In this document: piece by piece, positions 22,814 to 62,658 of the stretch
Layout of the letters: every line of letters begins with the position of its first letter
How positions within the stretch are numbered: position 1 is the stretch's first letter
NCBI GenBank assembly: GCA_046292385.1
Contig: JBKBRF010000004.1
Span: forward strand, 111,654 to 175,653
Source of the DNA: Armatimonadota bacterium
GTDB taxonomy: Bacteria > Armatimonadota > SYMT01
DNA length: 64,000 nucleotides
Direction: 5' to 3'
Notes under the pieces: model-generated
What the model saw: the letters and a program-made list of their open reading frames with translations, nothing else
Told to the model about the DNA's origin: nothing
The model's database searches: none
Program-made: the position numbers and the translations under genes

Positions 22814-22870
22814 GGTAAGCTCTGAGTGCTACGTGAAACTCCCACCTGGGGAGACCACTCGAGAGGGGCT

Positions 22871-23598: not shown

Positions 23599-23627
23599 GT
23601 TGGATCCGCGTGTGGCGAAGCCTCGCG

Positions 23628-32768: not shown

Positions 32769-35153
32769 TTATAGAAGACCCTTCCGCTTGCGCAGGATCC
32801 ATTCGCCGACCAGCAGCGTCACGAACAGGATCAGCGGCAGCGGCGCGTCCCACAGCTCATGCTCCACCCGGCTCCGCACCTCCTGGCTGCGGTCCGGCAG
32901 TAGCTCCGGCAAGCTCTTCGCCTCGCTCCAGAGGAGGTACTTGCCGCCGGAGACGGAGGCGAGCCGCTTCAGCAGCTCCACGTTCTGCTGCGGCTCCTCC
33001 AGCTCGAGGCTCGCCGACTCCACCACCACGTTCGTGAGCGACTCGGCCTTCCGGACTCCCGGCGCCTTCAGCGACGCCTTGTACGAGCCCGGACGCGAGG
33101 CGATCCACTCGCCGGAATAGACGCCCGCCGCGCCGGGGACCGGCTCCAGCTTCACGGGGAAGCGCTGGCCATCTTCGCGGGTGAGGTCGGCGTCGACCGA
33201 GTTCACCCGCACCGGGTGGAAGTTCGGCGTCAGCAGCCGCGCGCGGAGCACCACCCGCTCTCCCAGCGTGTAGGTGGTGCGGTCCGCGGTGAGCCGGACG
33301 TACCGGTTGTCCCCCGGCAGCTCGTGCGGCGTGAGCGAGCGGATCACCTGCCCCCAGAACCGGTAGAAGTACTTGTCCCCGGTCCGGTGGCGCCACTGCC
33401 AGGTGCTGTCGACCATCGTCATGAACGAGGTGCCTTCGCCCACCTGCTGGAGCGCCATCAGCGGGATCTTGCCGTCGGTCCCGGTGATGCCGGGATGCCG
33501 TGCCAGCACCGTGGCGCCCGGCTTGGCCCGGTCGGTGATCCCGCACCAGTACATTCCCGGCAGGTCGTTCCAGACCGTGCGGTTCTGCTCCCGGTCCGGC
33601 ACCAGCAGCATCATCGGGTGTCCGGCGCCCGCGTCGCTCAGCTCGAGCTGGAACGGCTCGCGGAAGATCTGCTCCCGATGCGCGAGCGGCACAACGATCG
33701 GCCACACCGCTTCCAGGTCGGTCTGGCGGTACTGCCACGGCAGGAAGTTCTCGCCCGCCATCGTGATCAGGCTGCCGCCGCGCTCTTCCACGAACGCGCG
33801 CACGTTCTTCAGGTCCGCCGCCGTGAAATAGTCGCGCGGCACGTCGCCGAGCACCAGGATATCGAACTCGAAGAGCGCCTTCTTCGTCCGCGGGAATCCG
33901 AAGATCGGGACGTTCCCCTCGCCACCGCGGGACGGGTCCGGATCGTCGGCTAGCATGCAGGAGAACTGGGTGGTGGTGTCCCGCATGATCGCGTTCTTGA
34001 GGAAGCGATACTCCCAACGGGGATAGCCCTCCACGTAGAGGATCTTCAGCTTCTTGTCGACGATTCGGATCGGCCACGACTTCCGGTTATTGGAGAGCGT
34101 CACCTCGCCCGTCTGTCCCGGCACCGAGACGCTAAGCGTGCGAGCGCCGACCATATCCGGGGTGAACGAGAGGGTCAGCTCCTGCTTGCCGCCCGCGCCC
34201 CGGAGCGGCACGTTGATCCGCTGCAGCACCCGGTTTCCGATTGCGAGGGTGAGTGGGACCGTCCGGCCGGCGAAGCCGCGCTGGCGGAGGCTGACGGAGA
34301 CCACCACCTCGTCGCCCTTCCGCACCACCTCGTCCGCCAGCAGGCTGGTGACGGCGACGTCGCGCGGCGGGGTGGGGTCGCCGAAGCCGACCGTGTAGAT
34401 CGGGGCGCGCAGCTCCGCGGAGCGCCGTGCGGCGAGGGCAGGGTCCTCGCCCATGTTCTGCCCGCCGTCGCTGAGCAGCACCACTCCCGCCAGCGGCTGG
34501 CCGGCGGTGTCCTGCAGCACGAAGTCGATCGCGTCCCCAATGCGGGTTTGCTCGTCCTCCGGCTTACCCACCGCCAGCGGGATCCGCTCTCCGGCCGCCC
34601 CGGGCTCCTTCGGGTCGCCCTTGGCGTCCTTCAGCTCGGTGCCGGTCGCCTCCGTGCCGAAGCGGTAGAGCCGGACGGAGTGCTTCGCGACCAGCTCCTT
34701 CAGCAGCGTGGCGTCCCCCTGGTTCAGGAGCCGCCCCAGCGTCTCCATCCGGGTCGCCTCCGCCATCTTCGGATCGCCGAGCGCCTGGATCAGGTCGGCC
34801 TTGCGCTTTGCGTCCTGCCACCGGTCCTTCAGCCCCATGCTGCTCGACTCGTCGACCAGCACGGCGACCACCGACCGGTTCACCTGCGTCCGGTGACTCC
34901 GCAGCATCGGCTGCCAGATCAGCAGCGCCAGGATCACCATGGCGGCGATCCGCATCACCGAGAGCGGCCCCTTCCAGAGCCACGACGGCCGCCGCCCGTC
35001 TCGCGCGTAAAAGACGACCACCCACGCGAGCAGCCCCAGCCCCGCCGCCACGGCGACCCAGACCGGCCAGGGCTGGACGAAGAACAGGCGGTCCCACCGC
35101 AGCATGTCCTGCCCGGGCTCAATCCCCAGTAATCGGTAGATCCAGTCGCTCAT
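32769..35153 (-). CDS. Membrane-anchored von Willebrand factor A (vWA) domain protein with a large extracytoplasmic C-terminal region
   Basis: Two N-terminal transmembrane helices. vWA MIDAS start VAVLVDESSSMG. 794 aa. Confidence 0.6.
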   Translation of the reverse strand: MSDWIYRLLGIEPGQDMLRWDRLFFVQPWPVWVAVAAGLGLLAWVVVFYARDGRRPSWLWKGPLSVMRIAAMVILALLIWQPMLRSHRTQVNRSVVAVLVDESSSMGLKDRWQDAKRKADLIQALGDPKMAEATRMETLGRLLNQGDATLLKELVAKHSVRLYRFGTEATGTELKDAKGDPKEPGAAGERIPLAVGKPEDEQTRIGDAIDFVLQDTAGQPLAGVVLLSDGGQNMGEDPALAARRSAELRAPIYTVGFGDPTPPRDVAVTSLLADEVVRKGDEVVVSVSLRQRGFAGRTVPLTLAIGNRVLQRINVPLRGAGGKQELTLSFTPDMVGARTLSVSVPGQTGEVTLSNNRKSWPIRIVDKKLKILYVEGYPRWEYRFLKNAIMRDTTTQFSCMLADDPDPSRGGEGNVPIFGFPRTKKALFEFDILVLGDVPRDYFTAADLKNVRAFVEERGGSLITMAGENFLPWQYRQTDLEAVWPIVVPLAHREQIFREPFQLELSDAGAGHPMMLLVPDREQNRTVWNDLPGMYWCGITDRAKPGATVLARHPGITGTDGKIPLMALQQVGEGTSFMTMVDSTWQWRHRTGDKYFYRFWGQVIRSLTPHELPGDNRYVRLTADRTTYTLGERVVLRARLLTPNFHPVRVNSVDADLTREDGQRFPVKLEPVPGAAGVYSGEWIASRPGSYKASLKAPGVRKAESLTNVVVESASLELEEPQQNVELLKRLASVSGGKYLLWSEAKSLPELLPDRSQEVRSRVEHELWDAPLPLILFVTLLVGEWILRKRKGLL

Positions 35154-35164
35154 TTAAAAGGCAA

Positions 35165-35237
35165 AAGGCTAAAGGTTCACCCCCGAATGGGGGGCTAAAG
35201 GTTCACCCCCCGAACGGGGGCTAAAGGGCTGCACGGG
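35165..35237. repeat. Tandem direct repeat of a C5-GAAY-G5 hairpin unit (2.5 copies) in the vWA/BatA intergenic spacer
   Basis: ggctaaaggttcaCCCCCgaatGGGGGgctaaaggttcaCCCCCCgaacGGGGGctaaagggctgcacggg. Confidence 0.5.
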
Positions 35238-35278
35238 AGCGCGTTCCTACTGTCGTATGGCGCACCTCGACCGCGCCA

Positions 35279-35315
35279 GCCCTACACGCTACACCCTAAA
35301 CGCTACCCCCTAGCC
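35279..35315 (-). repeat. G-rich heptamer (TACACCC / CTAAACG) repeat. The minus strand carries three to four GGG tracts.
   Basis: ccctacacgctacaccctaaacgctaccccctagcc, directly after the BatA-like gene stop. Confidence 0.45.
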
Positions 35316-35316
35316 A

Positions 35317-37470
35317 CTACGATCTTCTCCCGAACGCCTGGGCCAGCATCGTCTCGATCGCCATCAGGGCGAGCGCGGCGATCAGCAGGTGACGCCACAG
35401 CTCGATCCCCTGGCGGCTCCGCGTCAGCTCCGTGAGAAGGTTGTCGTTCAGGCTGATCCAGGTCAGCTCTCGCACCGGCAGCAGCTTCCGGACCGCGGCT
35501 TCATCGAGGCCGCGGAGGTCGGCTTCCGCCGGATCCCGGTTTACCGCAAAGAGGTCTTCGCTGCCGCCGGCGGAGGCCAGCCGGTAGAATCCCGCCGCCT
35601 TCGTGGAGGGCACCGTCACCACGGCGCCGCGCTCGTCGACCACCGGCTTCAGCGTCGTCTTCTGTCCTTTCGGACTGATCGCGGTGACGCGCTCTCCTGC
35701 TTCGGAGAGCGGCAGCGGCTTCACCAGCGGCTCCCCCAGCCGTCCGTTGCGGGTGCCGTCCGCGCTGCTCGCCAGGTAGGCGATGAGCTGATGCACCATC
35801 GGCAGGAACGCGGGCCGCAGCGGGAGCGTGTTCCACTCCGTGTTCGCCGTGCTCGCCACCAGGATCACGCGCCCCAGCCCGAACTCCTTCTCCACGATTG
35901 CCGGCGCGCCGTTGCTGAAGCGGGCCATCACCTGGACCGACTTGTCGCCTTCCTTCGGAGTGAGCCGGAAATAGCGGGAGAAGTCGGCGGTATTCAGGTC
36001 GACGTCCTGCGCGCCGCGGAACCGCTGCAGGGCGGGGTGCTCCACGCTGGCGGGGTCGAGGAACGCCTTCTCGGTCCCAACGCCGGAGAGGCGGGCCGGC
36101 AGCAGGCTCGGCTGCGCCTCGTAGAGGTCCCGATTGTAAAGGCTGGCGTTCACCCGGCTGCCGAGGAAGATCACCGCGCCGCCGCCGTTCTGTACGAACT
36201 CCGCCAGCAGGCGGCGGTCGCCCTCGCCGAGGGTCGCCACGTCGGAGAGCGCCACCACGTCGTAGCCGCGCACGTTCTCGCCGCCGAAGGTGCTGCCGGT
36301 GATCACCCGCGGCTCCAGCGGCGTCGCCTCCTGGCCGGGGGAGGTGAGCGGCGGTGCGAGCGCGAGCTGCAGGAAGAAAGCGCCGTCCTTCTGGGGCGTC
36401 TGCGGGTTGGGCCGACCGTTCAGCACCAGCACCTTCACGTTCTGCCGCACCGGGAGCGCCAGGTAGCCGCGGTCGTCCGCCGGGAGGCGGTCTTCCGAGA
36501 TCCGGACCGTACAGGCCCGCACGCCCGGACGGTCGAAGATCTGGTTGAAGGTGACGAGGGTGCCCTGGCCCGGCTCCACGTCGATCCGCTGCGTCGATCC
36601 CTGCGCCTGGCCGTCGACCTCCAGCGTCACCAGCAGCCCGCGGGCCGCCTGGGTGCCGCGGTTGATGACGCGGGCCTGGATCCGCGCGGAGGAGCGGGCG
36701 GTCGCCAGCCCCCGCGCCGCCTGGACCCACTCCACGGCCAGGTTCGAGGCGCGCGGCTCGCGCGCCGGCAGCATCACGAGGCGCGCGGCCTTCGCCAGCG
36801 ACTCCCACGCGGCGGGGTCGCGTCCCTTGCCGTCGAAGCCGAGCGCCTGGTTATCGCTGATCAGGAAGACCTCGCGATTGACGAAGCGCGACTCGTTCAG
36901 CACCTCGACCGCCAGGCGCGCCGCGCCGCCGAAGTTGGTGCCGGCGTCGGAAAGCGCCACGCCCTTCCGCAGCACCTCCGTGACCGTGTTCAGGTCGAGG
37001 CTGGGCTGGCGGATCAGCGCCCGGGGCGGCTCTGAGGCGAGGATGACGCTGACGCCGTCGCCCTGCCGGAGCCCCCGCTGCACCAGGTCGAGCGCCCGGT
37101 CGCGGGCGCGGTCGAAGACCGTCTCGGCGCGCCCTACCGACGGGCGGTAGCCCATGCTGTAGGAGTTGTCCAGGATGATGACCGCGTGGACCTGCCCCCG
37201 CTGGCTCGCTACCGGGACCCCGCCCATCCGCACGATGGGGCGGCAGAGAGCGAGCACGACCAGCGCGATGATGAGGCAGCGGATCAGGAGGAGCAGGAGT
37301 TGCTCGATCATCAGGCGCCGGCTGCGGTTCCGCTGGCTCTGGCGCAGGAACTCCATCGCCCCCCACCGCACCACGCGGAAGCGCTTCCGCTGGAGCAGGT
37401 GGATGATGATCGGAATGCTGACCAGCGCGAGCGCGCCGAGCAGACCGCTGTTGATGAAAGAGAGTCCCAT
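35317..37470 (-). CDS. BatA-like protein: aerotolerance-regulator N-terminal domain plus vWA domain
   Basis: BatA_N-type start MGLSFINSGLLGALALVSIPIIIHLLQRKRF, a second transmembrane helix, then vWA MIDAS VIILDNSYSMG. 717 aa. Confidence 0.7.
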   Translation of the reverse strand: MGLSFINSGLLGALALVSIPIIIHLLQRKRFRVVRWGAMEFLRQSQRNRSRRLMIEQLLLLLIRCLIIALVVLALCRPIVRMGGVPVASQRGQVHAVIILDNSYSMGYRPSVGRAETVFDRARDRALDLVQRGLRQGDGVSVILASEPPRALIRQPSLDLNTVTEVLRKGVALSDAGTNFGGAARLAVEVLNESRFVNREVFLISDNQALGFDGKGRDPAAWESLAKAARLVMLPAREPRASNLAVEWVQAARGLATARSSARIQARVINRGTQAARGLLVTLEVDGQAQGSTQRIDVEPGQGTLVTFNQIFDRPGVRACTVRISEDRLPADDRGYLALPVRQNVKVLVLNGRPNPQTPQKDGAFFLQLALAPPLTSPGQEATPLEPRVITGSTFGGENVRGYDVVALSDVATLGEGDRRLLAEFVQNGGGAVIFLGSRVNASLYNRDLYEAQPSLLPARLSGVGTEKAFLDPASVEHPALQRFRGAQDVDLNTADFSRYFRLTPKEGDKSVQVMARFSNGAPAIVEKEFGLGRVILVASTANTEWNTLPLRPAFLPMVHQLIAYLASSADGTRNGRLGEPLVKPLPLSEAGERVTAISPKGQKTTLKPVVDERGAVVTVPSTKAAGFYRLASAGGSEDLFAVNRDPAEADLRGLDEAAVRKLLPVRELTWISLNDNLLTELTRSRQGIELWRHLLIAALALMAIETMLAQAFGRRS

Positions 37471-37484
37471 GCCCGAAAAACTGC

Positions 37485-38387
37485 TCAGGTGCGGCGCATG
37501 CGCCCGGCGAGATAGCGCGAGAGCCCGTCCGCCGGGTTTTCAGAGGTCAAAAGCCGCACCACGTCTACCTGGATCTCCCGGCAGCCGCGCTCCAGCTCGG
37601 TACAGAACTCCTGGAACTGGCGGAGGTACTCCTCGCGGATGCCGCGCGGGTCTACCAGCAGCTCCGGCTCCAGCTCCAACCCCTCGAACTTGGTCAGCTC
37701 GTCGAACGGGAACTCCACCTCGTCATCGTCCAGCACGTGAAAGACGATCACTTCGTGCTTGCGGTAGCGGAAGTGCCGGAGTCCCTCCAGCACGTCGCGC
37801 ACGTCGCCGAACAGATCTGAGAAGACGACGACCAGTCCTCGCCGCTTCAACTGCTCCGCGATCTGGTGGAAGGTGGGGGCGAGCTCCGTCTTGGGACGCG
37901 ACTCGGCAGTCGCCAGCGCCTCCAGCATCTGGGTAAAGTGGCTGCCGGTCGCCTTGGGTGGGATCGTGGTCCGCACCCCTTCGTCGAAGAGCACCAGGCC
38001 CGCGGCATCCCGCTGCTGCATCAGCAGCGACGAGAACGCGGCGGCGGCGACGGAGGCGTACTCCAGCTTGTCGAGCTTGCGGTTCTTCCCGCGGTAGCGC
38101 ATCGACTCGCTGGTGTCGACCATCAGCACCGCCTTCAGGTTCGTCTCTTCCTCGTACTCCTTCACGTAGTAGCGGTCGGAGCGCGCCAGGACCCGCCAGT
38201 CGATGTACCGGATCTCGTCTCCGGGCGTGTACTCGCGGTGCTGGGCAAACTCCACGCTGAAGCCGTGGTAGGGGCTCTTGTGGAGACCCGAGATGACGCC
38301 CTCCACCACCTCGCGCGCGTGGAACTCGAGGCGCGAGACGGCGCCCAGGACTTTCGGATCACCGAGTTGCTGCTGGGTGAGGGGCAT
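37485..38387 (-). CDS. DUF58-family protein (MoxR-associated vWA-like)
   Basis: GFSVEFAQHREYTPGDEIRYIDWRVLARSDRYYVKEYEEE...VLMVDTSESM is typical of DUF58 partners of MoxR ATPases. Confidence 0.75.
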   Translation of the reverse strand: MPLTQQQLGDPKVLGAVSRLEFHAREVVEGVISGLHKSPYHGFSVEFAQHREYTPGDEIRYIDWRVLARSDRYYVKEYEEETNLKAVLMVDTSESMRYRGKNRKLDKLEYASVAAAAFSSLLMQQRDAAGLVLFDEGVRTTIPPKATGSHFTQMLEALATAESRPKTELAPTFHQIAEQLKRRGLVVVFSDLFGDVRDVLEGLRHFRYRKHEVIVFHVLDDDEVEFPFDELTKFEGLELEPELLVDPRGIREEYLRQFQEFCTELERGCREIQVDVVRLLTSENPADGLSRYLAGRMRRT

Positions 38388-38391
38388 CGGT

Positions 38392-39444
<1,053 letters not shown>

Positions 39445-39546
39445 ATTCAGCTCCGAGAGTGATCTAGGGTCTAGCGTCCAGGGTCGAGTGGCTACGGTGG
39501 GGGGTTAGAGGTAGGTGTGTGTGCACGGCGAACCCGCCCCCACAGA

Positions 39547-39580
39547 CCTAAACCCTACACCCTAGACCCTAGACCCTAAC
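39547..39580 (-). repeat. G-rich heptamer repeat (CCCTAAA/CCCTACA/CCCTAGA units; minus strand TTAGGG-like) abutting the stop of the downstream toroid-protein gene
   Basis: cctaaaccctacaccctagaccctagaccctaac. A complementary G-rich arm ggggggttagaggtaggtgtgtg lies ~30 nt upstream, so a long imperfect hairpin is also possible. Confidence 0.5.
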
Positions 39581-39583
39581 TAA

Positions 39584-40702
39584 CTACAGTGATTGCTTGC
39601 AGTTCGCGAGGGAGATGAGCGAGTAGCCGGTCGACAGCTCGGCGCGGTTCTCCCACCAGCGCGGGTTCTGGTTGACCCAGGAGCCGTCCGGCCGCTGCCG
39701 GCGCACGATGGCGGCCGACACCTCCTGCGCCCACGGATGCTTCTTCCCACGCGAGTCGGTAACTACCTTCTGACCCCAGACATTCAACGTCTTCGTCATC
39801 GTGTGGTAGTAGTAGTAAAGCCCGTCGTCCTTCATGCGCGGGTTCTGCTCCACGTCCCAGTTCGCTCGCAGCCAGCTCCACGCCGCCTGCACGCGGGGAT
39901 CGGTCTTGGAGACGTTGGCGTAGAGGTAGCTCTTCAGCCCGGCGTAGGTCATGCTGCCGTAAGAGCTGTGCGGCTGCTTGGTGTACTCGTCCGCCTTGCT
40001 CTCCCCACTGGAGGCGTAGACGAAGCCGCCGTCGTTCCCCGCCCACTGCTGATCGTTGCTCTCGGAGCGGTTCTGGCACCGCTGCAGGAACAGGATCGCC
40101 TTCTGGAAGACCTCGGAGTTCCGCGGGTAACCGGACTCCTTCAGCGCCTCCAGCGCGTTCTGCAGGTTGGAGACGTCCGGGTTGTCCGCGCGGGAGCCGT
40201 ACCCGATGCCGCCGTACTGCGAGTCCTTCCGCGTGTAGCCCTCGCCTTCGTCGAACTGCGACTTCGCCAGGAACGCCTGCGCCTTGCGGATCGTCTCGCG
40301 GTGGGCCGGGTTCCGGGTGAGGTGCAGCGCGGTCAAGGCGAGCGCCGTGTTGTAGTTCGGAAGCCGCTGCGCCGGTCCGAACTGGTCGGTATAGATGGCG
40401 CCGTCCGGCTTGGCCAGGCCGGCCAGGTACTTCACCGCCTTCGCCACCGCGGGGTCCTTTTCGGTGACGCCGTTCCGCAGGAAGCCGATCAGGCAGACCG
40501 CCGTGATGCCGGGGTACTGGCCCCAGGAGCCGTCCTGTCCCTGTTTCTGACGCAGGAACGCCAGTCCTTTACGGACCGCCTGCGCGTTCCGCTGGGAGAC
40601 CGCCGCGCCGGCCGGAGCCGACTGCGCGGAGGCCGCGGAGAGCGGCATGGAGATCGCCACGGCGCTGCAGCCGAGCGCTATCAGGGAGAAGAGACGAAGC
40701 AT
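39584..40702 (-). CDS. Secreted prenyltransferase/squalene-oxidase-repeat (alpha/alpha-toroid) protein 1
   Basis: Signal peptide MLRLFSLIALGCSAVAISMPLSAASAQS. QW-type repeats QKQGQDGSWGQ, AKPDGAIY, QQWAGNDGGFVYASSG, RRQRPDGSWVNQN. Start set at the internal Met to avoid overlapping the upstream gene. Confidence 0.6.
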   Translation of the reverse strand: MLRLFSLIALGCSAVAISMPLSAASAQSAPAGAAVSQRNAQAVRKGLAFLRQKQGQDGSWGQYPGITAVCLIGFLRNGVTEKDPAVAKAVKYLAGLAKPDGAIYTDQFGPAQRLPNYNTALALTALHLTRNPAHRETIRKAQAFLAKSQFDEGEGYTRKDSQYGGIGYGSRADNPDVSNLQNALEALKESGYPRNSEVFQKAILFLQRCQNRSESNDQQWAGNDGGFVYASSGESKADEYTKQPHSSYGSMTYAGLKSYLYANVSKTDPRVQAAWSWLRANWDVEQNPRMKDDGLYYYYHTMTKTLNVWGQKVVTDSRGKKHPWAQEVSAAIVRRQRPDGSWVNQNPRWWENRAELSTGYSLISLANCKQSL

Positions 40703-40706
40703 GGGA

Positions 40707-41537
40707 TCAGTCCTTCGATAGTTGACGGGTGACCCGCCAGAGGCAGAGCGCCGCGAGGGCTCCGTACACCCCTGCGGTCTGCCAGACGGGTGGATAGACG
40801 TAGAAATACTCATTCGCGCTCAGATGGCGGTAGAGCCAGCCGAAGCGGAGCACGTCGGTCTCGAGCGCGCTGCCGACCGCCGTGACCGGGTTCGGGAGCA
40901 GGGCCCAGTTGATCCAGCGCTCCGGAGTTTCCATTTGACGGTAGAACGGCTCCAGACCTGCGAGCGCCAGGATCGCCGCCGCCAGTATTAGGAGTGCCAG
41001 CGGCACCGCCAGCGCCGGATACCGCACGCGGCTGGTGAGCCAGAGCCCCAGCGCCGCGAAGGCGGCACTCTGGACCAGCAGCAGCAGGTGCGCCTGGATC
41101 GTGCCGAAGACCGGAAGCTCGTAACCGCCCAGGGCCACCGCCAGCGCCACTCCCAGTGAGAGGGCCAGCAGCGCGGTCACCGGATAGAGCACCGCGGCGA
41201 GCGCGCCGGCGGTGATCGTGAGCGGGGAGAGCCGCGTCCGGCGGTACTCCTCCAGGTGGCCGTCCCGCTCCAGCCGGCGCCAGAGCAGCGCCCCGCGCAC
41301 CGCCGCCCAGGGGAGCGCGATCACGGTTTCCGCCACCAGCGACATGCCGATCCAGCGGTCGAGCATCCGGGGCCGCAGGAAGGCGTACTCCGCCATCTCA
41401 AGCCAGTAACGCTGCAGCGCCGCGCCCGCGGCGCCCGCCACGAAGAGCAGCAGCAGGACCGCCCACGCACGGCCGCTGCTTCGCCCCAGCCGGGACGCGT
41501 GCCGTGCTACCGGGTTGTCCCAGATGCGTGCCGCCAT
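40707..41537 (-). CDS. Polytopic membrane protein (six to seven transmembrane helices), function unknown
   Basis: Hydropathy reading of the 276-aa ORF. No recognizable catalytic motif. Confidence 0.45.
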   Translation of the reverse strand: MAARIWDNPVARHASRLGRSSGRAWAVLLLLFVAGAAGAALQRYWLEMAEYAFLRPRMLDRWIGMSLVAETVIALPWAAVRGALLWRRLERDGHLEEYRRTRLSPLTITAGALAAVLYPVTALLALSLGVALAVALGGYELPVFGTIQAHLLLLVQSAAFAALGLWLTSRVRYPALAVPLALLILAAAILALAGLEPFYRQMETPERWINWALLPNPVTAVGSALETDVLRFGWLYRHLSANEYFYVYPPVWQTAGVYGALAALCLWRVTRQLSKD

Positions 41538-41639
41538 GACGTGCAGTCGAGTTACTCTCCGGTTCGGATAGGAAAAGCCGTGCCAGTTACCGCGTTAGAC
41601 GAGCCCGGGCACAGGTGAGAAGCAGAGAAAACAAGGAGA

Positions 41640-42461
41640 TTACCGGCTCCCGCTCGCCGTCTTCGCGGCGCCCGCGGGCCGGGGCGCAAACGTCACGGTC
41701 ACCGGAGTCTCGAATTTGGGGCAGATCCGCTCGTTCACCTTGTAGAGCGAGTCGTCCGTCCCTCCCGGCAGCCCGTTGTTCACGATCGCCGCCGGGTCCC
41801 GGTAGGTCGCGATCAGCGAGAGCTCCTCATCCGCCACGAACTGCCCGTCCCGCACGATGGAGCCGCTGAAGATCCACGGCCCGCGCTGCAGCGGCCGCTT
41901 TCGCTCCAGGTCCCAGACCAGGTCTTCCGCGTGCACCTTCACGCTGCGCCCGTCTCGCTTCCAGGAGACGAAGACGTCGACCGGCGAGCCCTGCGGCGGC
42001 TTCTCGTCGCCCTGCACGTCGATCCCGCCCTTCGGCTCCAGCCCGAGCAGGATCAGGCCGATCTGCAGGTGGAGCGGCCGCACGTCGAGCGAGAGCACGC
42101 TTTCGTGGAGCTTGCCGCCGGGCGCCACCGCCAGGTACTCGATGGTGCTCCGGTCCATGTTCACCTTGCCGCTGCAGGTAGCGGTGCGGCTCTTCAGGTC
42201 GACCTTCAGCTTGCCCACCTGGTAGAGGTCGTCCCCGATCTTCCGCGCGGGCGACTCTTCGGCTCCGGGAGCGCTCGTCACGGCGGCGGCCATTCCGGAC
42301 CCAAAGCACGGCGGCCGGTTGAACGCCGAGACCCCGAGGAGCCCCACCACCGCCGCGGTCGCAAGCCACCACCGGGGCGCGGGTAGATAAGGGGCGACTG
42401 GAGCGAGTGGGCGGCGAAGCATCGTCATGCGAGCGGAGGAGCCTTTCGGGTGCTGAGCCAC
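41640..42461 (-). CDS. Secreted/lipoprotein-like hypothetical protein
   Basis: N-terminal hydrophobic segment (WWLATAAVVGLLGVSAFNRPPCFGS). No motif I can assign. Confidence 0.4.
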   Translation of the reverse strand: MAQHPKGSSARMTMLRRPLAPVAPYLPAPRWWLATAAVVGLLGVSAFNRPPCFGSGMAAAVTSAPGAEESPARKIGDDLYQVGKLKVDLKSRTATCSGKVNMDRSTIEYLAVAPGGKLHESVLSLDVRPLHLQIGLILLGLEPKGGIDVQGDEKPPQGSPVDVFVSWKRDGRSVKVHAEDLVWDLERKRPLQRGPWIFSGSIVRDGQFVADEELSLIATYRDPAAIVNNGLPGGTDDSLYKVNERICPKFETPVTVTFAPRPAGAAKTASGSR

Positions 42462-42464
42462 TTT

Positions 42465-43652
42465 TTATTCCCGCATCAGGCGCGTGTCAACCCAATCGGC
42501 GTGATCGGCCGCGTCGCCGTTGTCGGCGTAGTCCACCTCCAGGCGCAGCAGCAGCACTCCCTTGAGCGGCACCTCTACCGGCAGCGGCGCATCGCCGCCG
42601 CGCACGATCGGGCTCTCCCAGAGCAGCTTGTCGTCGCCGAACACCCGGTAGACGACGCTGCCGCCGCGGCCGACCTCATCGTCGATCCCGACGAGCGAGA
42701 CGAGCTTCGCGAAGCTGCCGTCGAGCGTGTACGTCACCTGGCTGCGGCTCCGCATCCCGAGCCCGCGGGTGTAGGTGCGCCCCCGGAGACGCAGCGGCCG
42801 GCCGGAGGCAGACTGGTTCTGCCGGATGGTGAAGGCACCGTCGAGATAGGGGATGGTCCGCGACTCGCTCGGCTCCAGGTCGGAGACGTAGACGAGCTTT
42901 CCGTTCCGGACCTCCAGCGCCGTGAGGGAGGCGAGCGGCAGCTCCAGCTCCGCGCCCCAGTCCAGCTTCACGGTGAGCGACTGCTCCCCGAGCTTGACGA
43001 ACGTGCCCGTGAGACGGTCTCCGCCCCCAAGGTCGAGCGACAGCACCACCCCGGTCCGCGGAGGGGCCGCCGCTTCCGCGCGCGGCGCCAGCGCGATCGC
43101 CTGCACGCGCTCGATCGGCACGGGAATCGGGCCGCCGCCCGGGTCGATGCTCACCTTATCCGCGGCGATCCCCTGCAGCTCGCCCTGTACGCGGTCGTTC
43201 GCGAGGATCACGGTGTCCTTACCCACCGGTCCGGGCAGCGCCGCCTTCTCCTGCAGCCGAAGCGCGGAGACGCGGGGGAGGGGGATCGTGATCTCGCCCC
43301 AGCCGGCCGAAACCTTCACCTGGCGCGCCGCCGGGAACGAGAGCTTTCCGAAGACCCGGTCGCCGTTCGCCAGGCGGACCGTCGGCGTGATGGTGCGGCC
43401 CGCGACCTTCCCGAAGCTGACCTGCACCAGGTCCTTTACGGAGACGGTCAGCGGCTCTCCCTCGGAGGGGGTGAGCACGATCTGCTCCGCCGTGGCGCCC
43501 GGTTTCAGGTCGACGCCCGTGACCGTCTTCCCGTCGGCGAGCAGCACCGAGGCGTCTCCCGCCCACGCGGGGCCGGCGAGAAGCGAGCTGAGAAGCAGGA
43601 TGCCGCCGACGAGAGCGCCGGGCATGCGGGGGGATGTGGGAAGCCTGAACAA
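42465..43652 (-). CDS. Secreted protein with a C-terminal NPCBM/NEW2-like carbohydrate-binding module
   Basis: Signal peptide. The C-terminal ~130 aa (GLGMRSRSQVTYTLDGSFAKLVSLVGIDDEVGRGGSVVYRVFGDDKLLWESPIVRGGD...LLLRLEVDYADNGDAADHADWVDTRL) matches the NPCBM pattern. Confidence 0.55.
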   Translation of the reverse strand: MFRLPTSPRMPGALVGGILLLSSLLAGPAWAGDASVLLADGKTVTGVDLKPGATAEQIVLTPSEGEPLTVSVKDLVQVSFGKVAGRTITPTVRLANGDRVFGKLSFPAARQVKVSAGWGEITIPLPRVSALRLQEKAALPGPVGKDTVILANDRVQGELQGIAADKVSIDPGGGPIPVPIERVQAIALAPRAEAAAPPRTGVVLSLDLGGGDRLTGTFVKLGEQSLTVKLDWGAELELPLASLTALEVRNGKLVYVSDLEPSESRTIPYLDGAFTIRQNQSASGRPLRLRGRTYTRGLGMRSRSQVTYTLDGSFAKLVSLVGIDDEVGRGGSVVYRVFGDDKLLWESPIVRGGDAPLPVEVPLKGVLLLRLEVDYADNGDAADHADWVDTRLMRE

Positions 43653-43687
43653 CTGAACCGCCTTTATTGCTTCCGGTCTGTTTTCAA

Positions 43688-43772
43688 GTTCCAGGTCGAC
43701 AGGTTTCAGGTTCCGAGCCCCGCCTCCGGCGGCCCCAACCTGCAGCCTGCTAACGTGCTCACCTGCAACACG
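43688..43772. repeat. CAGGTT/AACCTGC heptamer-repeat element (related to 62561-62645)
   Basis: ttccaggtcgacaggtttcaggttccgag ... aacctgcagcctgctaacgtgctcacctgcaac. The second half aligns with aacctgcaacctgctaacctgcaac at 62620. Confidence 0.4.
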
Positions 43773-43777
43773 ACCGG

Positions 43778-44926
43778 CTATTTCTGGTAGATCGGGAGGA
43801 GCGCGGCCGGAACCTGGAGCGCCAGGACCCCCATCGCGGTGGCGTAGGCATAGCCCGGGCCGTCATACCAGCTTCCGTCCGGCCGCTGGGTGGAGACGAG
43901 GTGGTCCGCCAGCTTGGGGAACCAGTAGCGCCAGTACTTATCGCCCGCCTGGTACATCGCCTGGGTGCAGTAATAGTGGGCGTAAAAGGTGTGCCCGTCC
44001 CGGGTGGTGGGGCTGCGAGCCATCAGGTAGGAGAGGCCGCGCTTGCACTCCGGCGCGTTCCGCTCGCCCATCACGATCAGCGAGAGCACGCCGGCGCCGG
44101 TTCGCGCCAGGCCGGAGCCCTTCTGGTTGGTCATGTAGCTGAAGCCGCCGTCGTCGTTGTTCTGGCAGCGCTTCACGTATTCGATCGCGCGGGCGGTGGT
44201 GTCCTTGGGCACCCGCACGCCGGCGTTGGCGGCCGCCCGCAGCGCCATGATCTGGCAGATCACCACGCTGATGTCGGCATCCGCCACGCGCGGCTGGTAG
44301 CGCCAGCCGCCTTCCGCGTTCTGCGTGCGGAGGATCAGCGCCACCGCGTTCTCCAGCTTGTCCCGCAGGTCGCCGCGGCGGGTCATGCCGTACAGCTCCG
44401 CCAGGGCGAGCGTGGCGAAGCCGTGCCCGTACATCGGGGGACCCGCCTGGGCCTGCGCATTGAAGATCAGCCCGGTCCGCTGCGCGTTATTGGCGAGGTA
44501 GTCGGCCGCCTTCCGGAGCACCTGCCCGTAGGGCCCGCGGTCCGGCTGGTGCCCCGCAGCCATGAAGGCGAGGGAGCAGAGCCCGACGATCCCGACGTCC
44601 GAGCTGTAGCGGGAGTCGCCCCAGGAGCCGTCGGCGTTCTGCTGCTCCGCCAGGTACTTGAGCGCCTTCTTTGCCGCCGCCTCGGTCTTCGGCGTGCCGA
44701 GATACTCCCGCGCTTCGGCGTCGAGCCCGCCCCGTTCCTGCAGCGTAAAGCCGCTCCCGGAGATGTTCTTCCCGGAGCCGGCCTTCGGCTTGGGCGCCGG
44801 CTTCTGGGCCGGCTTGCGCTGCGCGAACGAGCTCGCCCCCGCCAGCAGCGAAGCCGCCGCAAAGCCCGCGATGAGGAGTGTGCCGATCCCTCGCTGTGCC
44901 ATCTTCCCGTTTCGTCTCATCCGCAC
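43778..44926 (-). CDS. Secreted prenyltransferase/squalene-oxidase-repeat (alpha/alpha-toroid) protein 2
   Basis: Signal peptide. Repeats EQQNADGSWGDS, RTQNAEGGWRYQP, KRCQNNDDGGFSYMTNQ, STQRPDGSWYDG. Confidence 0.6.
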   Translation of the reverse strand: MRMRRNGKMAQRGIGTLLIAGFAAASLLAGASSFAQRKPAQKPAPKPKAGSGKNISGSGFTLQERGGLDAEAREYLGTPKTEAAAKKALKYLAEQQNADGSWGDSRYSSDVGIVGLCSLAFMAAGHQPDRGPYGQVLRKAADYLANNAQRTGLIFNAQAQAGPPMYGHGFATLALAELYGMTRRGDLRDKLENAVALILRTQNAEGGWRYQPRVADADISVVICQIMALRAAANAGVRVPKDTTARAIEYVKRCQNNDDGGFSYMTNQKGSGLARTGAGVLSLIVMGERNAPECKRGLSYLMARSPTTRDGHTFYAHYYCTQAMYQAGDKYWRYWFPKLADHLVSTQRPDGSWYDGPGYAYATAMGVLALQVPAALLPIYQK

Positions 44927-45002
44927 GCCTGCGCGCCAAATCCCATGTCTGCCCAGGATCAGGAGTAGCTGCAGCCGGGGCGCGCCCCGCCTTCGGACCA
45001 GC

Positions 45003-45030
45003 TACACCCTACACCCTACACCCTACACCC
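45003..45030 (-). repeat. (TACACCC)x4 perfect heptamer repeat. On the minus strand it reads (GGGTGTA)4, a canonical G3N4G3N4G3N4G3 quadruplex motif.
   Basis: ctacaccctacaccctacaccctacacccc between the toroid-protein-2 start and the giant-protein stop. Confidence 0.55.
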
Positions 45031-45043
45031 CGGGGCGAAGCCC

Positions 45044-48000
45044 CTACTTCCGTCCATCCTTCGAGAGCCCGCTGTAGTAGCGCTGGATCAGGTCCTGGTA
45101 TTCCGCCGGGATCTTCTCCTTGTACCCCTGCCGGAGCGCGTCCTGGCTGCGCGGGTCGAGGCCGGCGAAGCCGCGGTTGGTCGGGTCGTAGCCGGCCTGG
45201 GGACCGCCCTGGAGGCCGGTGCGGCGCTGGAGCGACCGCAGCGCGGGGGAGTTGCCCTGCTGGGCCTGGCCGGGTGAGGGTTGGCCCTGTCCCGCCTGCT
45301 GCTCTTGCTGCCCCTGCTGGCGGCCGGCCTGCTGCTGACGCTGCTGCTGCTGGCGCTGCTGCTGCTGTTGGCGGGCCATCTGCTGGGTCAGCTTCAGCGC
45401 CTCGCTCAGCTTGATGATCGCCTGCGACTCCTGCTCCTGCACCGGCTCGCCGGACTGCGACCGGTCGAGGCCGCGCTTCGCCTCCGACATGTGACCGCTC
45501 GCGGCCTTGATCCGGGAGGAGATCTGTCCGTTCCGCTTCAGGGCTTCCGCCACCTCGTCGGCGAACTTCCGCGCTTCCTCCTGCTGCCGCGCCGCTTCCG
45601 CGATCTGGTCCTTCTGGGCCGGCGTCAGCTCGTCGCCGCTGCGGTTGTCGTCGACGTCCTGGGTCTGCGCGCGGATGCCCTGCTCCATGAACCGGAGCAG
45701 GCGGATCTCCGCCAGGCGGCGCTGGATCTCCTTGTCGTCCTGCTGCTGCTGCTGGCCGCCCTGCTGCTGGCCGCCCTGCTGCTGGCCGCCGCCATCCTGC
45801 TCGTCGTTATCGTCCGGGTTGGGATCGAGCGCGTTCTTGAGCTGCTCCAGCAGGGAGGCCGCGCGGCCCTGCGCCTGCTGGGTCGGGTTCGCGCCCGCGT
45901 TGCCCTGCTCCAGGCCCTGCTTGGCGCGCTCCATCTGCCGGCGGGCCTGCCGGGAGAAGCTCTTGAAGACGTCGCTGGGCAGCTCCGCCTCCAGCTTCTG
46001 GGTGTCTGCCTCCAGGTCGCGCTGCTGCGCGGGGAGCTCGCCGAGCTGGCGGGTCGCTTCCGCCTGGCGGGTGCCCTGCTGGATCGCCTTCTGCCGCGCC
46101 ACGAGCTGTTCCAGCGACTTCCGCAGCTCCGCGAACGGGTCCTGCCGCTCCTGTCCCTGGGCTTCCGCCTGCGCCTGCTGCAGGCTCTCCATGGCGCGCC
46201 GCATCGCCTGCATCGCCCGCTGCTGCTGCTGCTGGGCCTGCTGCTGGCCGTTCTGGCCCTGGCTCAGCGACTGGCTCGCCTGCTGGCTCTGCTCCCCCGC
46301 CTGCTCCAGCTGCTGCGCCGCGCGGCCGGCGGAGGGAGTCTGCCGCTGCAGCCGCTGGAGCTGCCGCGCCAGGCTGCGCGCCTCCCGCTCGATCTCCCGC
46401 TGGCGCTGCGCCAGCTCGGCGCGCTGCTGCGGCGACATGAGCTGCCGCGCCTGCTGCTGCGCCTCCTGCTGCTGGGTCATCAGCCGCTGCAGCCGGCGCG
46501 ACGCCTGGCGGAGCTGCCGCTGCACGTTGCGCGGGTCGTTCGGATCGGCGGCGCTGCGGAGCTGCTCCGCCGCCTGCTCCAGCGCCTCCGCCGCCTGCTG
46601 CTGCTGGGAGTTCGCCTGGCCCAGCGAGTTCCGGCTGGCGTTCTGCGCCGCCTGGCTCTGCTGCTCCGTCACGCCGCTGCGCTGGAGGTCCTGCGCCGTC
46701 TCCCGCGCCGCTTCCGCCTGCGCCCCGTTCGCGCTGCGCATCGCCTCGGCGGCGCGCTGCAGGTCCTGGAGCGCCTCGGCCGTGGCGCGCTGGAGGTTCG
46801 CCTGCTGCTGCGCGTTCTCCTGAAGCTGCGCGCGCTGCTCGGCCGAAAGCTCGCTCATCTCCCGGCCGAGGGTCTGCGGCAGCATCTTGCGCGTCTCCGC
46901 CTGGAGCTGGCGCTGCTGCTGCGCGAGCCGCTCGAACCGCTGAGCCATCCGCTGCAGCTCGCTGCCGGGGCGGAGGAGCTGCTCGATCTTCTGCAGCTCC
47001 TGCTGGATCTGCTGCTGCTCGCCGGACGCCTGCGAGAGCTCGGAGCGAGCCTGCTGCGCGTTCGACTGCGCCTGGGCCTGCGCGCTGCCGATCCGGTTGG
47101 CGGCTTGCGGCACCTGGTTCTTCGAGAGCTGGTCGAGCCGCTGCTGCGCGTTCTGCTGCGACTGCACGTCTGCCTGCGGCGCCAGGTTGTTCGTCTCCGC
47201 CATGCGGCGCAGGTCCTGGACCCGCCGCGCGAGATCGGCTGCCGTGAAGCCGACGGAGCGCTGCCGCTCTTCCGCGGAGGCGAGCGCGTCGGCGTTCGGC
47301 GCGCCGCGGCGCCGCTCGGCTTCCACCTCGGCGCGGCTGCCCTTCTGCTCCTTCTGCAGCTCGCGCAGCGCCGCCAGGATCTCAGCCCGCTGCTCCTCGT
47401 ACCGGCGGTTCGCCTCCGCCTCGTCGATGATCCGGAGCTGGAACTCGCCGGTCTTCCCGACGTGCGGCCCGTTCAAGTTGTCGTAGTCGAGCGCCTCCGC
47501 GCGGTAGCGCACCAGGTCGCCCGGCTTGAGATTCAGCGCCCCGAGCTCCCAGAGGCTGGTCAGCTCGAGCTGCTTCTCGCGCCGCCCGCCTTGACCCGCC
47601 GGCATCGACCGGGAGGCGCCCTCGCCGACCCGGTAGGGGACTCGCACTGTCGCGATGCCGTAGTCGTCTTTCGCCGTGATCACCAGCTTGATGCGGGCGT
47701 TGGGGACGACGTCGAGGTCCCCGGCGGGGTCGAGAAGCTGGACTTCCGGCGTCTGGTCGCGGATCGCCTTGATCGGAAACGTCTGCGGCTCGGGAGCGAA
47801 GAAACCGTCGGTGTCTTTCAGCCGCAGCGCGTAGTGGCCGTTGTCCTTGACGGTGAGCGCGCCGGCGACGGTGTCGCCCTTCACGCTCCAGGGGGCCGGC
47901 TTCGCCTTCGGCAGCGTCGCCTCCGCAATCTCCAGCGGCTTGTTCGCCTTCAGCTCCAGCTCCACGAGCGTCCCGACCGGCGCGGCCACCCCGCCGGAGT

Positions 48001-53582: not shown

Positions 53583-53790
53583 CCTCGAGCACGAAGCTCA
53601 CCAAGAAACGCCAGGGAGTGATGCCTTACTTTCCAGGTCCGCCAGCAGACGCCCAAAAACCCTCAACCGCCTGCCAACCCGGCAACCGATCCACAGCCAA
53701 ACCGCGGCGTCTGCAGGCCCAGCCGCAGGCTGGGCTGGAGGAGGCCACCTGTGACCGCCCCTGGGCGCAGGGGCGGTAGCTCGACGGCGG

Positions 53791-53941
53791 TCGATTCAGC
53801 CCGTGATCCGCACTCCTGATGAAATCCGTCGCGGTGGCGCGGGAAGAGCCTTTCGGAGCGCACTCCCGGAGCAGCCCGCTAACGGAGCGAAGCGGAGTGT
53901 GAAAGGGCCGCGGAGGGCTTTCGCCGCGGGAGGGCTGAAGC
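53791..53941. mobile_element. MITE-like ~150-bp element, copy 1 (degenerate terminal inverted repeats)
   Basis: gattcagccc ... ggcgcgggaagag ... gagcgcactcccggagc ... aaagggccgcggagggc ... cgcgggagggctgaagc. Aligns end-to-end with the element at 59009-59166. Confidence 0.45.
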
Positions 53942-54059
53942 GGCCGACTAGGGCTCGGGGTCGGGCTTTCGGTACGGACGCTGCCTCTCGACCGCAGCCT
54001 GAGATCAACCCCACGTAGCCGACGCTGCCATCCGCCACGAGAGGTGAAACACTCGGTCC

Positions 54060-59004: not shown

Positions 59005-59008
59005 TTGC

Positions 59009-62549: not shown

Positions 62550-62560
62550 CCCTTCGATTT

Positions 62561-62645: not shown

Positions 62646-62658
62646 CCTCCGCCCGCTC

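Follow-up and report, generated by a model that had tools for sequence, protein, structure and literature searches.

The four G-rich repeat sites analysed here belong to a real family of tandem GGGTNNA heptamers, and their occurrence in this 64-kb stretch of DNA (hereafter, the window) is far from random. The arrays are confined to non-coding DNA, lie 0-13 nt after stop codons and occur singly or as convergent pairs. The explanation we prefer, and regard as reasonably probable, is that the four sites are simple-sequence repeats (SSRs) of the G-rich heptamer class of Rehm et al. 2015, born by slippage and tolerated in transcribed spacers.

An earlier note on this DNA had reported four arrays, and all of them were found in their places, both by reading the sequence and with TRF. 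Site 1 (about 477-501, minus strand) is (GGGTCCA) x3.4, which TRF reported as CCTGGAC x3.4 with 100% match at 477-500. Its first unit overlaps the TAG stop (499-501) of ispG/gcpE, and its last unit merges with the AGGAG Shine-Dalgarno (475-479) of the following gene, which starts at ATG 465-467 and was assigned as Uma2-like by eye from its translation. Site 2 (about 35279-35315, minus strand) is a degenerate array with units such as GTAGGGC, GTAGCGT, TTAGGGT and again GTAGCGT, where GGG and GCG take turns; TRF placed it at 35280-35312 with a degenerate period of 7/14. It lies 4 nt past the TAG stop (35317-35319) of a BatA/VWA gene. Site 3 (about 39547-39585, minus strand) reads TTAGGGT, CTAGGGT, CTAGGGT, GTAGGGT and TTAGG, and forms a G-rich 5' arm in the mRNA (TRF: 39547-39578, CCTAGAC x4.6, 92% match). 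It is found 3 nt past a TAG stop (39584-39586), with the MoxR start at 39444. Site 4 (about 45002-45031, minus strand) is a perfect (GGGTGTA)4, reported by TRF as CTACACC x4.1 with 100% match at 45002-45030, and it lies 13 nt past the TAG stop (45044-46) of a DUF4175-like gene.

The four sites share a head-to-tail period of 7 nt in TRF, and the G3 run is intact at sites 1, 3 and 4. The units in the window are GGGTCCA, GGGTGTA, GGGTCTA and GGGTTTA, with the consensus (Y/G)(T/C)AGGGT, that is, GGGTNNA. Each array starts 0-13 nt past the TAG stop of a minus-strand gene and the next gene is co-directional, which confirms that the arrays sit right after stop codons inside co-directional gene strings. 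Moreover, a DEAD-box helicase gene (59284-60696) is followed, right at its stop, by a two-unit copy (AGGGTTCTGGGT; 59272-59283, minus strand). The genes upstream of arrays are ispG, BatA/VWA, prenyltransferase-like, DUF4175-like and helicase genes.

Motif counts in the 64-kb window supported a non-random family. With up to three mismatches, CCCTNNACCCTNNACCCTNNACCC gave 11 overlapping matches at five places against a chance expectation of 0.04, and with up to one mismatch, AGGGTNNAGGGT gave 13 matches against 2.04 expected. Eight period-7 arrays were present, compared with a mean of 1.23 in 100 Markov-1 simulations. Intergenic DNA makes up 12.6% of the window, yet seven of these eight arrays are located there, as are all six places of the family. 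For arrays of period 3, 6, 9 or 12 in the window, the coding to noncoding ratio was 31:2. The window arrays lie outside ORFs and promoters, so they do not qualify as contingency SSRs of phase variation.

The arrays were also described as always G-rich on the transcribed strand. This is true for the four listed sites, but the site-3 spacer contains a reversed array at 39458-39490 (minus strand), which is C-rich in mRNA sense, G-rich on the plus strand and ends 17 nt ahead of the MoxR start (39444). The two 27-nt arms show 81% complementarity and allow pairing in several registers 7 nt apart. On RNA folding, the whole stop-to-start stretch (39445-39590, minus strand) became one long imperfect hairpin of ~120 nt (-67.2 kcal/mol, z = -3.64), with a stem base where the upstream gene's last codon and stop are joined to part of the GGAG before MoxR. 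Thus, the long hairpin proposed as an alternative fits site 3 (27-nt arms, z = -3.6), whereas three of the four sites lack a partner arm. At site 4, the spacer without a partner arm folded with z = +0.69.

The same layout appears in the window with other units. CAGGTTN and AACCTGN arms at 43653-43777 (minus strand) form a stop-to-start hairpin between the prenyltransferase-like gene and an NPCBM gene (-54 kcal/mol, z = -4.55). Between two convergent genes, (GGTTAGCA) x3.9 and (AAACCTGC) x4.2 at 62555-62648, with no strand assigned, provide 25-nt arms that are 92% complementary (-47 kcal/mol, z = -4.53). A weaker example is the minus-strand element at 13866-13965, (GAGAAT)n on the plus strand, where a purine-rich 5' arm directly after the stop at 13971 faces a pyrimidine-rich 3' arm in the mRNA (z = -1.9). 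Downstream of atpC (3529-3945), the array (TGAAGGA) x4.6 at 3427-3458 (minus strand) pairs only weakly with a purine-rich segment closer to the stop. Units, loops and lengths vary among the sites, and even the two CAGGTTN hairpins are unlike.

Known signals did not coincide with the arrays. An intrinsic terminator search over 34000-46000 gave no terminator-like match at any site, and the stems of the site-3, CAGGTTN and 62555-62648 hairpins are not followed by a T run. Intrinsic (Rho-independent) terminators are ruled out because the U tract is absent. Rfam 15 at gathering thresholds matched no family in the whole window, and at E <= 1 over 35100-45100 (sites 2-4) it gave four sub-threshold matches, none of them on the arrays. 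No sigma-70-like promoter was found near the arrays, and a literature search for the repeat strings themselves retrieved nothing relevant.

The source genome is an Armatimonadota MAG. In four relatives (L121-L124), whose MoxR is ~85% identical, the operon is kept and GGGTNNA arrays are absent from the orthologous spacers. One of them (L124) presents ATGA/GTGA overlaps or spacers of 5-95 nt where the window has 117-163 nt, and another (L121) carries other short-unit arrays at equivalent spacers. This comparison shows the window arrays to be lineage-specific expansions of operon spacers. Such absence is as expected of fast-evolving simple repeats, and the contrast with random microsatellites drawn in the earlier note fails for that reason. 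The orthologous operons with and without arrays are natural comparisons for the effect of the spacer on operon expression.

A scan of public contigs for (GGGTNNA)n retrieved at least 120 stretches from many phyla; the source genome is not among the matches listed. In the flanks of the listed stretches, we counted 352 arrays of period 7 and 27-35 each of periods 6, 8 and 9. The genomes with GGGTNNA arrays carry, among the matches listed, 211 further heptamer arrays that do not match the query, of which 60 have a G3 or C3 run and 72% lack a G3 run. Gene calls on the 120 comparison loci are crude, made with GC-by-codon-position heuristics that put ~25-30% of arrays 'inside' called ORFs, and with them the G-rich strand has its 5' end next to the closest ORF (5' neighbour at 18-25 nt, 3' neighbour at 107-122 nt; listed loci). 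Just after a stop, G-rich arrays outnumber C-rich ones by 78 to 23, and the G arm comes first in 45 of 47 paired arrays, both among the listed loci. Heptamer arrays without G3 follow the same positional and polarity rules among the matches listed. A few public matches are at contig ends (L004, L101, L117) and may be telomeric contamination.

Sense-strand G-richness as a general rule was not borne out, since the listed public loci showed no overall bias (23 vs. 20). The polarity is of another kind: the G-rich strand points away from the ORF closest to it, pairs have the G arm first, and hairpins extend from stop to start codon.

The earlier note interpreted the sites as G-quadruplex candidates with a telomere-like TTAGGG unit. 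In that case, an RNA (or DNA) G-quadruplex after the stop, built from four G3 tracts with 4-nt spacing, would tune termination, decay or polarity, which we consider quite unlikely. Sites 3 and 4 do contain canonical G3N4 x4 motifs (39553-39576 and 45007-45031), related GGGAATC and GGGGAYT oligonucleotides form K+-dependent G-quadruplexes in vitro, and four-unit arrays are favoured in Xanthomonas (PMC4692102). The sense-strand preference of G-rich arrays right after stops (among the at least 120 public stretches) also points in this direction. However, sites 1 and 2 fall outside the canonical G3N1-7 x4 motif, with three G3 tracts at site 1 and loops of 9-11 nt at site 2, and 11 canonical motifs occur in the whole window. 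G4Hunter gave -0.8 to -1.84 at the sites, unexceptional at 69% GC: site 4 scored -1.84, and 55 window regions reach a score >= 1.5. A hairpin of -67 kcal/mol competes at site 3. The window has arrays of the same layout without any G3 tract, and the G3-less majority of co-occurring heptamer arrays among the matches listed obeys the same position and polarity rules; Rehm et al. likewise saw the same distribution for repeats incapable of forming G-quadruplexes (PMC4692102). The quadruplex reading is thus weakened, and the evidence favours a hairpin over a G-quadruplex. The resemblance of TTAGGG to a telomere repeat is incidental, and a telomere meaning was rejected for the window sites, which are internal operon spacers.

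Selection could instead have acted on stop-to-start RNA hairpins, with a G-rich arm from the stop and a C-rich arm to the next ribosome-binding site, although we find this doubtful. Translational coupling would result if a terminating ribosome opened the base of the stem and so freed the start codon downstream; in another version, the long duplex would act as an RNase III site or a barrier to 3' exonucleases. Single arrays would be decayed halves. The pairing at the base of the site-3 stem suits the coupling version, and so do the stop/start overlaps at the same junctions in L124, which indicate that coupling is ancestral there. Hairpins span the entire spacer in the window and also in other genomes, where the left ORF ends within 25 nt of paired arrays in 20/39 and the right ORF lies within 25 nt in 14/38 of the listed loci, and the G-arm-first polarity of the listed pairs suggests selection on the transcript. 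Five of seven window spacers fold better on the sense strand, by 9-13 kcal/mol for the three clear hairpins, which would fit RNA-level selection. This sense-strand optimisation via G-U pairs, seen in the window, was gone in a larger set, as 19 co-directional pairs showed no sense/antisense bias (10/19; mean difference -0.1 kcal/mol). Moreover, the elements are not conserved among relatives, the partner arm is missing at three of the four reported sites, and such hairpins are also seen between convergent genes, for which coupling makes no sense.

Two further explanations are far less probable. REP/BIME- or MITE-like mobile palindromes, carried around by a transposase such as a RAYT, would also be intergenic, often palindromic and placed in otherwise compact operons; the GTAGGGT unit includes the GTAG tetranucleotide typical of REPs, and L121 has a Y1-transposase gene (RAYT) flanked by REP-like repeats. 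Those repeats (GGAGCGCGGACGTCCCGTCCGCC) are unrelated in sequence, however, and no element sequence is common to the sites; on these two grounds we rejected REP/MITE mobility. Besides, no target-site duplications were noticed on reading site 3 and other spacers by eye, and no transposase or Y1_Tnp was present among the window ORFs scanned, all of which makes mobility very improbable. We give equally little credence to DNA-level protein-binding arrays, in which the repeats would be iteron-like sites and a regulator or nucleoid protein would read their 7-bp register. A constant repeat size with variable sequence has elsewhere been argued to favour protein polymerisation on tandem repeats (PMC8161180), but here the unit sequence is too variable within one genome for a sequence-specific binder. 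Position follows ORF ends rather than promoters, with no sigma-70-like promoter nearby, and the published class is under-represented between divergent genes (PMC4692102).

In our preferred explanation of slippage-born, tolerated SSRs, slippage during replication, preferably in steps of 7 nt, would create the arrays, and paired arms would be kept alike by arm-to-arm template switching. They may persist only where expression is unharmed, that is, with G-rich RNA after a stop and C-rich RNA before a start. Arrays would be transcribed within the polycistronic mRNA, and physically they would mainly give the spacer a secondary structure, in RNA (or DNA). With a partner arm, as in site 3 and the CAGGTTN elements, this would be a long hairpin able to slip in register; with four G3 tracts and no partner, as in site 4, it is possibly an RNA G-quadruplex. 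Any influence of the arrays on mRNA stability, processing or translational coupling is likely to be small and not conserved.

The neutral SSR model alone leaves the strict polarity unexplained, and the polarity could reflect a selected function. To our knowledge, cyanobacteria have no Rho. Since Nostoc shows the same distance rule as described by Rehm et al. (PMC4692102), a Rho-avoidance filter cannot be the sole cause of the polarity. A bolder view, to which we lend limited confidence, is that of a cross-phylum heptamer class with fixed unit size and variable sequence, whose strict, strand-symmetric polarity reflects a conserved, selected mechanism acting on inter-cistron untranslated RNA. 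If true, the candidates would be coupling of termination and reinitiation through the hairpin, or a shield against Rho or exonucleases, and G-quadruplex capacity would be a mere side effect of one unit family.

Regarding known repeat classes, the pattern itself is not novel: the whole of it was already described for the GGGAATC repeats of Xanthomonas and the GGGGAYT repeats of Nostoc (Rehm et al. 2015, PLoS One; PMC4692102). Those arrays have about four units, are ~90% intergenic and are flanked by housekeeping genes, with the 5' neighbour ORF at 28 nt and the 3' neighbour at 160 nt (PMC4692102). Coding-strand arrays are no more than 50 bp from a stop and non-coding-strand arrays no more than 50 bp from a start, and this rule holds in both hosts. 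The arrays are under-represented between divergent genes, 30-35% are found on each strand, and many are paired, the pairs being always convergent and able to form stem-loops (PMC4692102). The listed public loci follow matching rules. The window arrays are likewise tandem 7-nt repeats with a G3 tract, intergenic and close to the 5' ORF, and they include a convergent inverted pair (site 3 with 39458-39490). Judged by unit sequence, they are a different unit family within this class, since the consensus here is GGGTNNA / YAGGGT instead of GGGNATC / GGGGAYT, and the arrays come from an uncultured Armatimonadota. Two Xanthomonas species have 83% of sites in common, whereas none is common here to relatives at ~85% MoxR identity. 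G-quadruplex formation was measured for the Rehm repeats and is judged here by sequence criteria alone.

The Rehm class in turn falls within the heptanucleotide 'long SSRs' of Mrazek, Guo and Shah 2007, and it resembles the cyanobacterial STRR. According to later accounts of the 2007 work, long SSRs have 5-11-nt units, with heptanucleotides the most abundant; they characterise large, GC-rich genomes of non-pathogens, are kept out of coding DNA, and were proposed to originate by polymerase slippage (PMC4679880, PMC4692102). By the same accounts, the work is a statistical survey without GGGTNNA units, stop-codon proximity or hairpin pairs. STRR, from Mazel et al. 1990, are reportedly intergenic tandem heptamers, often in operons, with several unit families per genome; the units are said to be CCCCAGT, TTGGTCA and CAACAGT, and the hosts low-GC heterocystous cyanobacteria. 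STRR thus differ from the window arrays in units and host, and we know of no polarity rule described for them.

Other heptamer elements are the TAACTGA direct repeats of Beggiatoaceae and cyanobacteria (MacGregor 2015, PMC4679880) and the GGACCGG x4 and MTYCTGA x5 elements of Geobacter metallireducens (PMC2700814). Like the window arrays, they consist of 2-6 heptamers at many intergenic sites per genome, with a suspected post-transcriptional role, but each genome has a single fixed unit. TAACTGA repeats are forward and just upstream of start codons, and the Geobacter element is also found within genes. REP/BIME are intergenic palindromes in operons that can stabilise upstream mRNA (PMC3333891, PMC2817692). 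REPs form a conserved sequence family, headed by GTAG and paired with a cognate Y1 transposase, whereas the window elements share a 7-nt period and layout, not sequence.

Our finding extends a little-studied repeat class to the Armatimonadota and adds the new unit family GGGTNNA. The presence of at least 120 arrays in many phyla, the G3-less arrays with the same rules, and the operons with and without arrays together suggest that the 7-nt period and the geometry define the 'quadruplex-forming repeat' class of 2015 better than its G-quadruplex potential does.

At the sequence level, the four G-rich heptamer arrays described in the earlier note all read as claimed. Tandem Repeats Finder gave 3.4 perfect copies of CCTGGAC at 477-500 (site 1), a degenerate array of period 7/14 at 35280-35312 (site 2), 4.6 copies of CCTAGAC at 39547-39578 (site 3), and 4.1 perfect copies of CTACACC at 45002-45030 (site 4). 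Their placement after stop codons inside operons was confirmed as well: each begins 0-13 nt past a TAG stop, and both the gene that ends there and the one that follows are on the minus strand. In the spacer of site 3, another array of this family, previously unreported, lies at 39458-39490. It runs opposite to site 3, so the proposal that the arrays are always G-rich on the transcribed strand holds for sites 1-4 but not for this one. A sixth site, the two-unit GGGTTCT array AGGGTTCTGGGT (59272-59283), lies past the stop of the DEAD-box helicase gene (59284-60696, minus strand).

Allowing up to three mismatches, CCCTNNACCCTNNACCCTNNACCC had 11 overlapping matches at five places in the window, against 0.04 in shuffles; AGGGTNNAGGGT, with at most one mismatch, had 13 against 2.04 expected. 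The window has a G+C content of about 69%, and calling its genes from the GC at the three codon positions left 12.6% outside genes. Of the eight period-7 arrays, seven fall within this non-genic fraction, and arrays of period 3, 6, 9 or 12 are distributed 31:2 inside versus outside genes. First-order Markov simulations of the window produced a mean of 1.23 period-7 arrays, against the eight observed.

The genes flanking the arrays are housekeeping genes rather than surface or contingency genes. Site 1 is flanked by ispG and then a Uma2-like gene (assigned by eye from its translation); the others include a MoxR, DUF58, BatA/VWA and DUF4175-like cluster with prenyltransferase-like and NPCBM genes, atpC, and the DEAD-box helicase. 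Rfam gave zero matches in the whole window at gathering thresholds and, at E ≤ 1 across sites 2-4 (35100-45100), sub-threshold matches only, none at the sites. There were no tRNAs in the window, and the U-tract terminator motif was absent from every site.

Other elements of the window deserve mention. A 26-nt tandem repeat, GGCTAAAGGTTCACCCCCCGAACGGG (2.3 copies, 35167-35227), with a CCCCC-N4-GGGGG hairpin in every copy, shares the spacer of site 2 and lies directly upstream of the ATG at 35153 (minus strand). Read on the minus strand, two non-coding stretches, each of about 280 nt, share 80% identity. One (53640-54000) lies upstream of a gene for 656 aa (51612-53582) that lacks a clear Pfam match, the other (58880-59240) upstream of a beta-lactamase-family gene (57171-58643). 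Neither had a credible Rfam match, even at E ≤ 1, and the pair may be a dispersed repeat, or else a structured leader or ncRNA not yet described. Next to the helicase gene lies one (61226-61693, plus strand) for a protein with an RRM domain and a long tail rich in Gly and Tyr; elsewhere, RRM proteins of the RGG/Gly-rich kind bind G-rich RNA. Finally, the GC3 heuristic called no gene within 22796-23627 (830 nt), which apparently contains two small plus-strand ORFs of lower GC3, possibly, from the look of their sequence, an antitoxin-like and Fic/Doc-like pair.

The long hairpin that had been offered as an alternative to a G-quadruplex (G4) is directly supported for site 3. Its two arms of 27 nt are 81% complementary, with several possible pairing registers because of the 7-nt period, and the entire stop-to-start spacer folds at -67.2 kcal/mol (z = -3.64). 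The hairpin reading likewise applies to elements with another unit, the CAGGTTN/AACCTGN arms at 43653-43777 (z = -4.55) and at 62555-62648, between convergent genes (92% complementary, z = -4.53). Weaker structures of a purine and a pyrimidine arm were found at 13866-13965 (z = -1.9) and after atpC (3427-3458). Sites 1, 2 and 4 have no partner arm, and the fold of site 4 is no more stable than that of shuffled sequence (z = +0.69). The sense strand folded better than the antisense for five of seven window spacers; among 19 co-directional pairs from other genomes it did so in 10, with a mean difference of -0.1 kcal/mol. Since the bias is absent across these pairs, we make no claim of fine-tuned selection at the RNA level.

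Arrays of the (GGGTNNA)n type are not peculiar to one genome, because a scan of species-representative genomes found at least 120 stretches matching CCCTNNACCCTNNACCCTNNACCC. The matches listed span Acidobacteriota, Planctomycetota, Verrucomicrobiota, Gemmatimonadota, Chloroflexota, Bacteroidota, Cyanobacteria, Patescibacteria and further groups, and the window arrays belong to a cross-phylum class. The matches were mostly internal intergenic arrays, many visibly paired with an inverted copy; for some at contig ends (L004, L101 and L117, of TTTAGGG type), contamination with eukaryotic telomeres or the ends of replicons is a possible source. About 0.9 Mb of their flanking sequence held 352 period-7 arrays (at least three copies), versus 27-35 each for periods 6, 8 and 9. 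Many genomes have individual intergenic spacers pieced together from several different tandem arrays set back to back (L022 365-470, L091 2939-3060, L105 7380-7520), for example (GGGTCGA)n and then (CCTGTCCG)n or (GGGGTC)n.

Across these listed loci, where gene calls were crude and figures are approximate, there was no overall strand bias relative to genes: between co-directional genes the G-rich strand was sense in 23 cases and antisense in 20. The position bias was strong. The ORF 5' of the G-rich strand lay at a median distance of 18 nt for arrays matching the query and 25.5 nt for the others, versus 107.5 and 122.5 nt for the ORF 3' of it. Just after stops, G-rich arrays outnumbered C-rich ones 78 to 23; just before starts, C-rich outnumbered G-rich 37 to 18. 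When 6-9-nt tandem arrays formed inverted pairs, the G-rich arm was 5' of the C-rich arm in 45 of 47 (14 of 16 among pairs not matching the query), and many pairs occupied the entire stretch between neighbouring ORFs. This pair polarity cannot be a by-product of gene direction, since it is identical on both strands. All the window elements conform to these rules of proximity, orientation and arm order.

We compared the window with five syntenic or partly syntenic loci of Armatimonadota relatives (L121-L125), and none of its arrays was conserved there; the window MoxR is 100% identical to a protein annotated as from an Armatimonadota MAG, and the next relatives are at 86% identity or less. Orthology of the cluster is clear in L124 (52% and 66% full-length identity for two large proteins), where the same junctions are ATGA/GTGA overlaps or 5-95-nt spacers, versus 117-163 nt in the window. 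The arrays are thus lineage-specific expansions of operon spacers, dispensable for the operon. Equivalent spacers of L121 (GCA_041690135.1) carry other short-unit arrays or G-first hairpins, including a hairpin past the DUF4175-like gene and 11 copies of (ACCTGAAC) ahead of a 795-aa gene. L122 and L125 have a few arrays of their own, and L123 and L124 essentially none. This is how fast-turnover simple repeats with lineage-dependent occurrence behave.

The relatives also carry insertions. In L121, the operon contains a Y1-transposase (RAYT-like) gene (6114-7017) with inverted REP-like copies of GGAGCGCGGACGTCCCGTCCGCC around it, a classical REP/RAYT pair whose sequence is unrelated to the heptamer arrays. 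L121 (12192-12572) and L122 (11884-12417) have a short unannotated ORF, absent from the window, between DUF58 and BatA; the inverted octamer arrays ACGCCAAG / CTTGGCGT on either side give it the look of a small selfish gene cassette with tandem-repeat ends. Uma2-family (putative endonuclease) genes occupy differing positions in otherwise syntenic operons (window 3-467, minus strand; L121 18101-18661; L122 17350-17880), which suggests mobility; that of the window follows ispG, directly behind the site 1 array.

The earlier note had held that the arrays fit the canonical G4 motif. Four G3 tracts with 1-7-nt loops are present at sites 3 (39553-39576) and 4 (45007-45031) but not at site 1, with three G3 tracts, or site 2, with 9-11-nt loops. 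G4Hunter scores at the four sites (-0.8, -1.36, -1.6 and -1.84) are no outliers, because 55 regions of the window reach an absolute score of 1.5 or more and 11 canonical motifs occur in it. The G arm of site 3 is half of a very stable duplex, which competes with a G4. Of the 211 heptamer arrays left after removing query matches from the flanks of the matches listed, just 60 had a G3 or C3 run, and the rules were obeyed all the same. For these reasons G4 formation is not the organising principle of the arrays, although it is possible at site 4. The interpretation in the earlier note stands in part: the array family, its position and, at site 3, the hairpin hold, and the G4 motif fits two of the four sites.

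As to how the arrays arose, we favour, with some confidence, a composite of slippage, template switching, a selective filter and transcribed spacer hairpins of small effect. Arrays would originate by replication slippage with a favoured step of 7 nt, and paired arms would be kept alike by arm-to-arm template switching, the quasipalindrome correction known from E. coli genetics. Selection would remove arrays whose RNA is G-rich, Shine-Dalgarno-like or prone to G4 if they lie shortly before a start, and also those that leave a long untranslated stretch of C-rich RNA directly behind a stop; the observed geometry would be what survives. Surviving elements would be transcribed within the operon mRNA and would add a long hairpin to the spacer, or at site 4 possibly an RNA G4, and whatever influence they have on decay, processing or coupling is probably slight and unconserved.

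A hairpin selected between stop and start for translational coupling, as an RNase III site or as an exonuclease barrier would suit the fold of site 3; with no conservation in the relatives and no general sense-strand bias, we consider it unlikely. We are similarly doubtful of a reading in which a conserved mechanism, one that acts on intercistronic RNA and does not depend on G4, underlies the polarity rule. A role as G4 regulators is less probable still, and published heptamer repeats unable to form G4 share the same distribution as those that can (PMC4692102). Mobile elements and protein-binding sites are each a very improbable reading of the arrays. Besides the composite, a simple filter for Rho avoidance was considered as the sole cause. 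Cyanobacteria are not known to have Rho. The distance rule holds in Nostoc too (PMC4692102), so Rho avoidance is not the whole story.

The oldest known example of heptamer arrays is the STRR heptamers of heterocystous cyanobacteria. Arrays with a fixed unit include TAACTGA in Beggiatoaceae and cyanobacteria (PMC4679880) and four-copy GGACCGG at 49 sites in Geobacter metallireducens (PMC2700814). That heptanucleotide repeats are overabundant in large GC-rich genomes was reported, with slippage as the explanation, by Mrazek et al. 2007, as summarised in PMC4679880 and PMC4692102. The closest parallel is the class of Rehm et al. 2015 (PMC4692102), which covers GGGAATC repeats from two species of Xanthomonas and GGGGAYT repeats from Nostoc. 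Those repeats are 89-93% intergenic, prefer a length of four units, and lie within 50 bp of a stop (coding strand) or a start (non-coding strand), with 30-35% on each strand between aligned ORFs. Their neighbouring ORF is near on the 5' side (28 nt) and distant on the 3' side (160 nt). Each genome has 70-75 'convergent' inverted pairs, potential stem-loops; the repeats form G4 in vitro, most are transcribed, and their function could not be assigned. The window arrays share every structural feature of this class (heptamer units with G3 runs, intergenic position, ORF proximity and convergent pairs) and differ in the unit consensus. They are thus a new unit family, GGGTNNA, within a class known since 2015.
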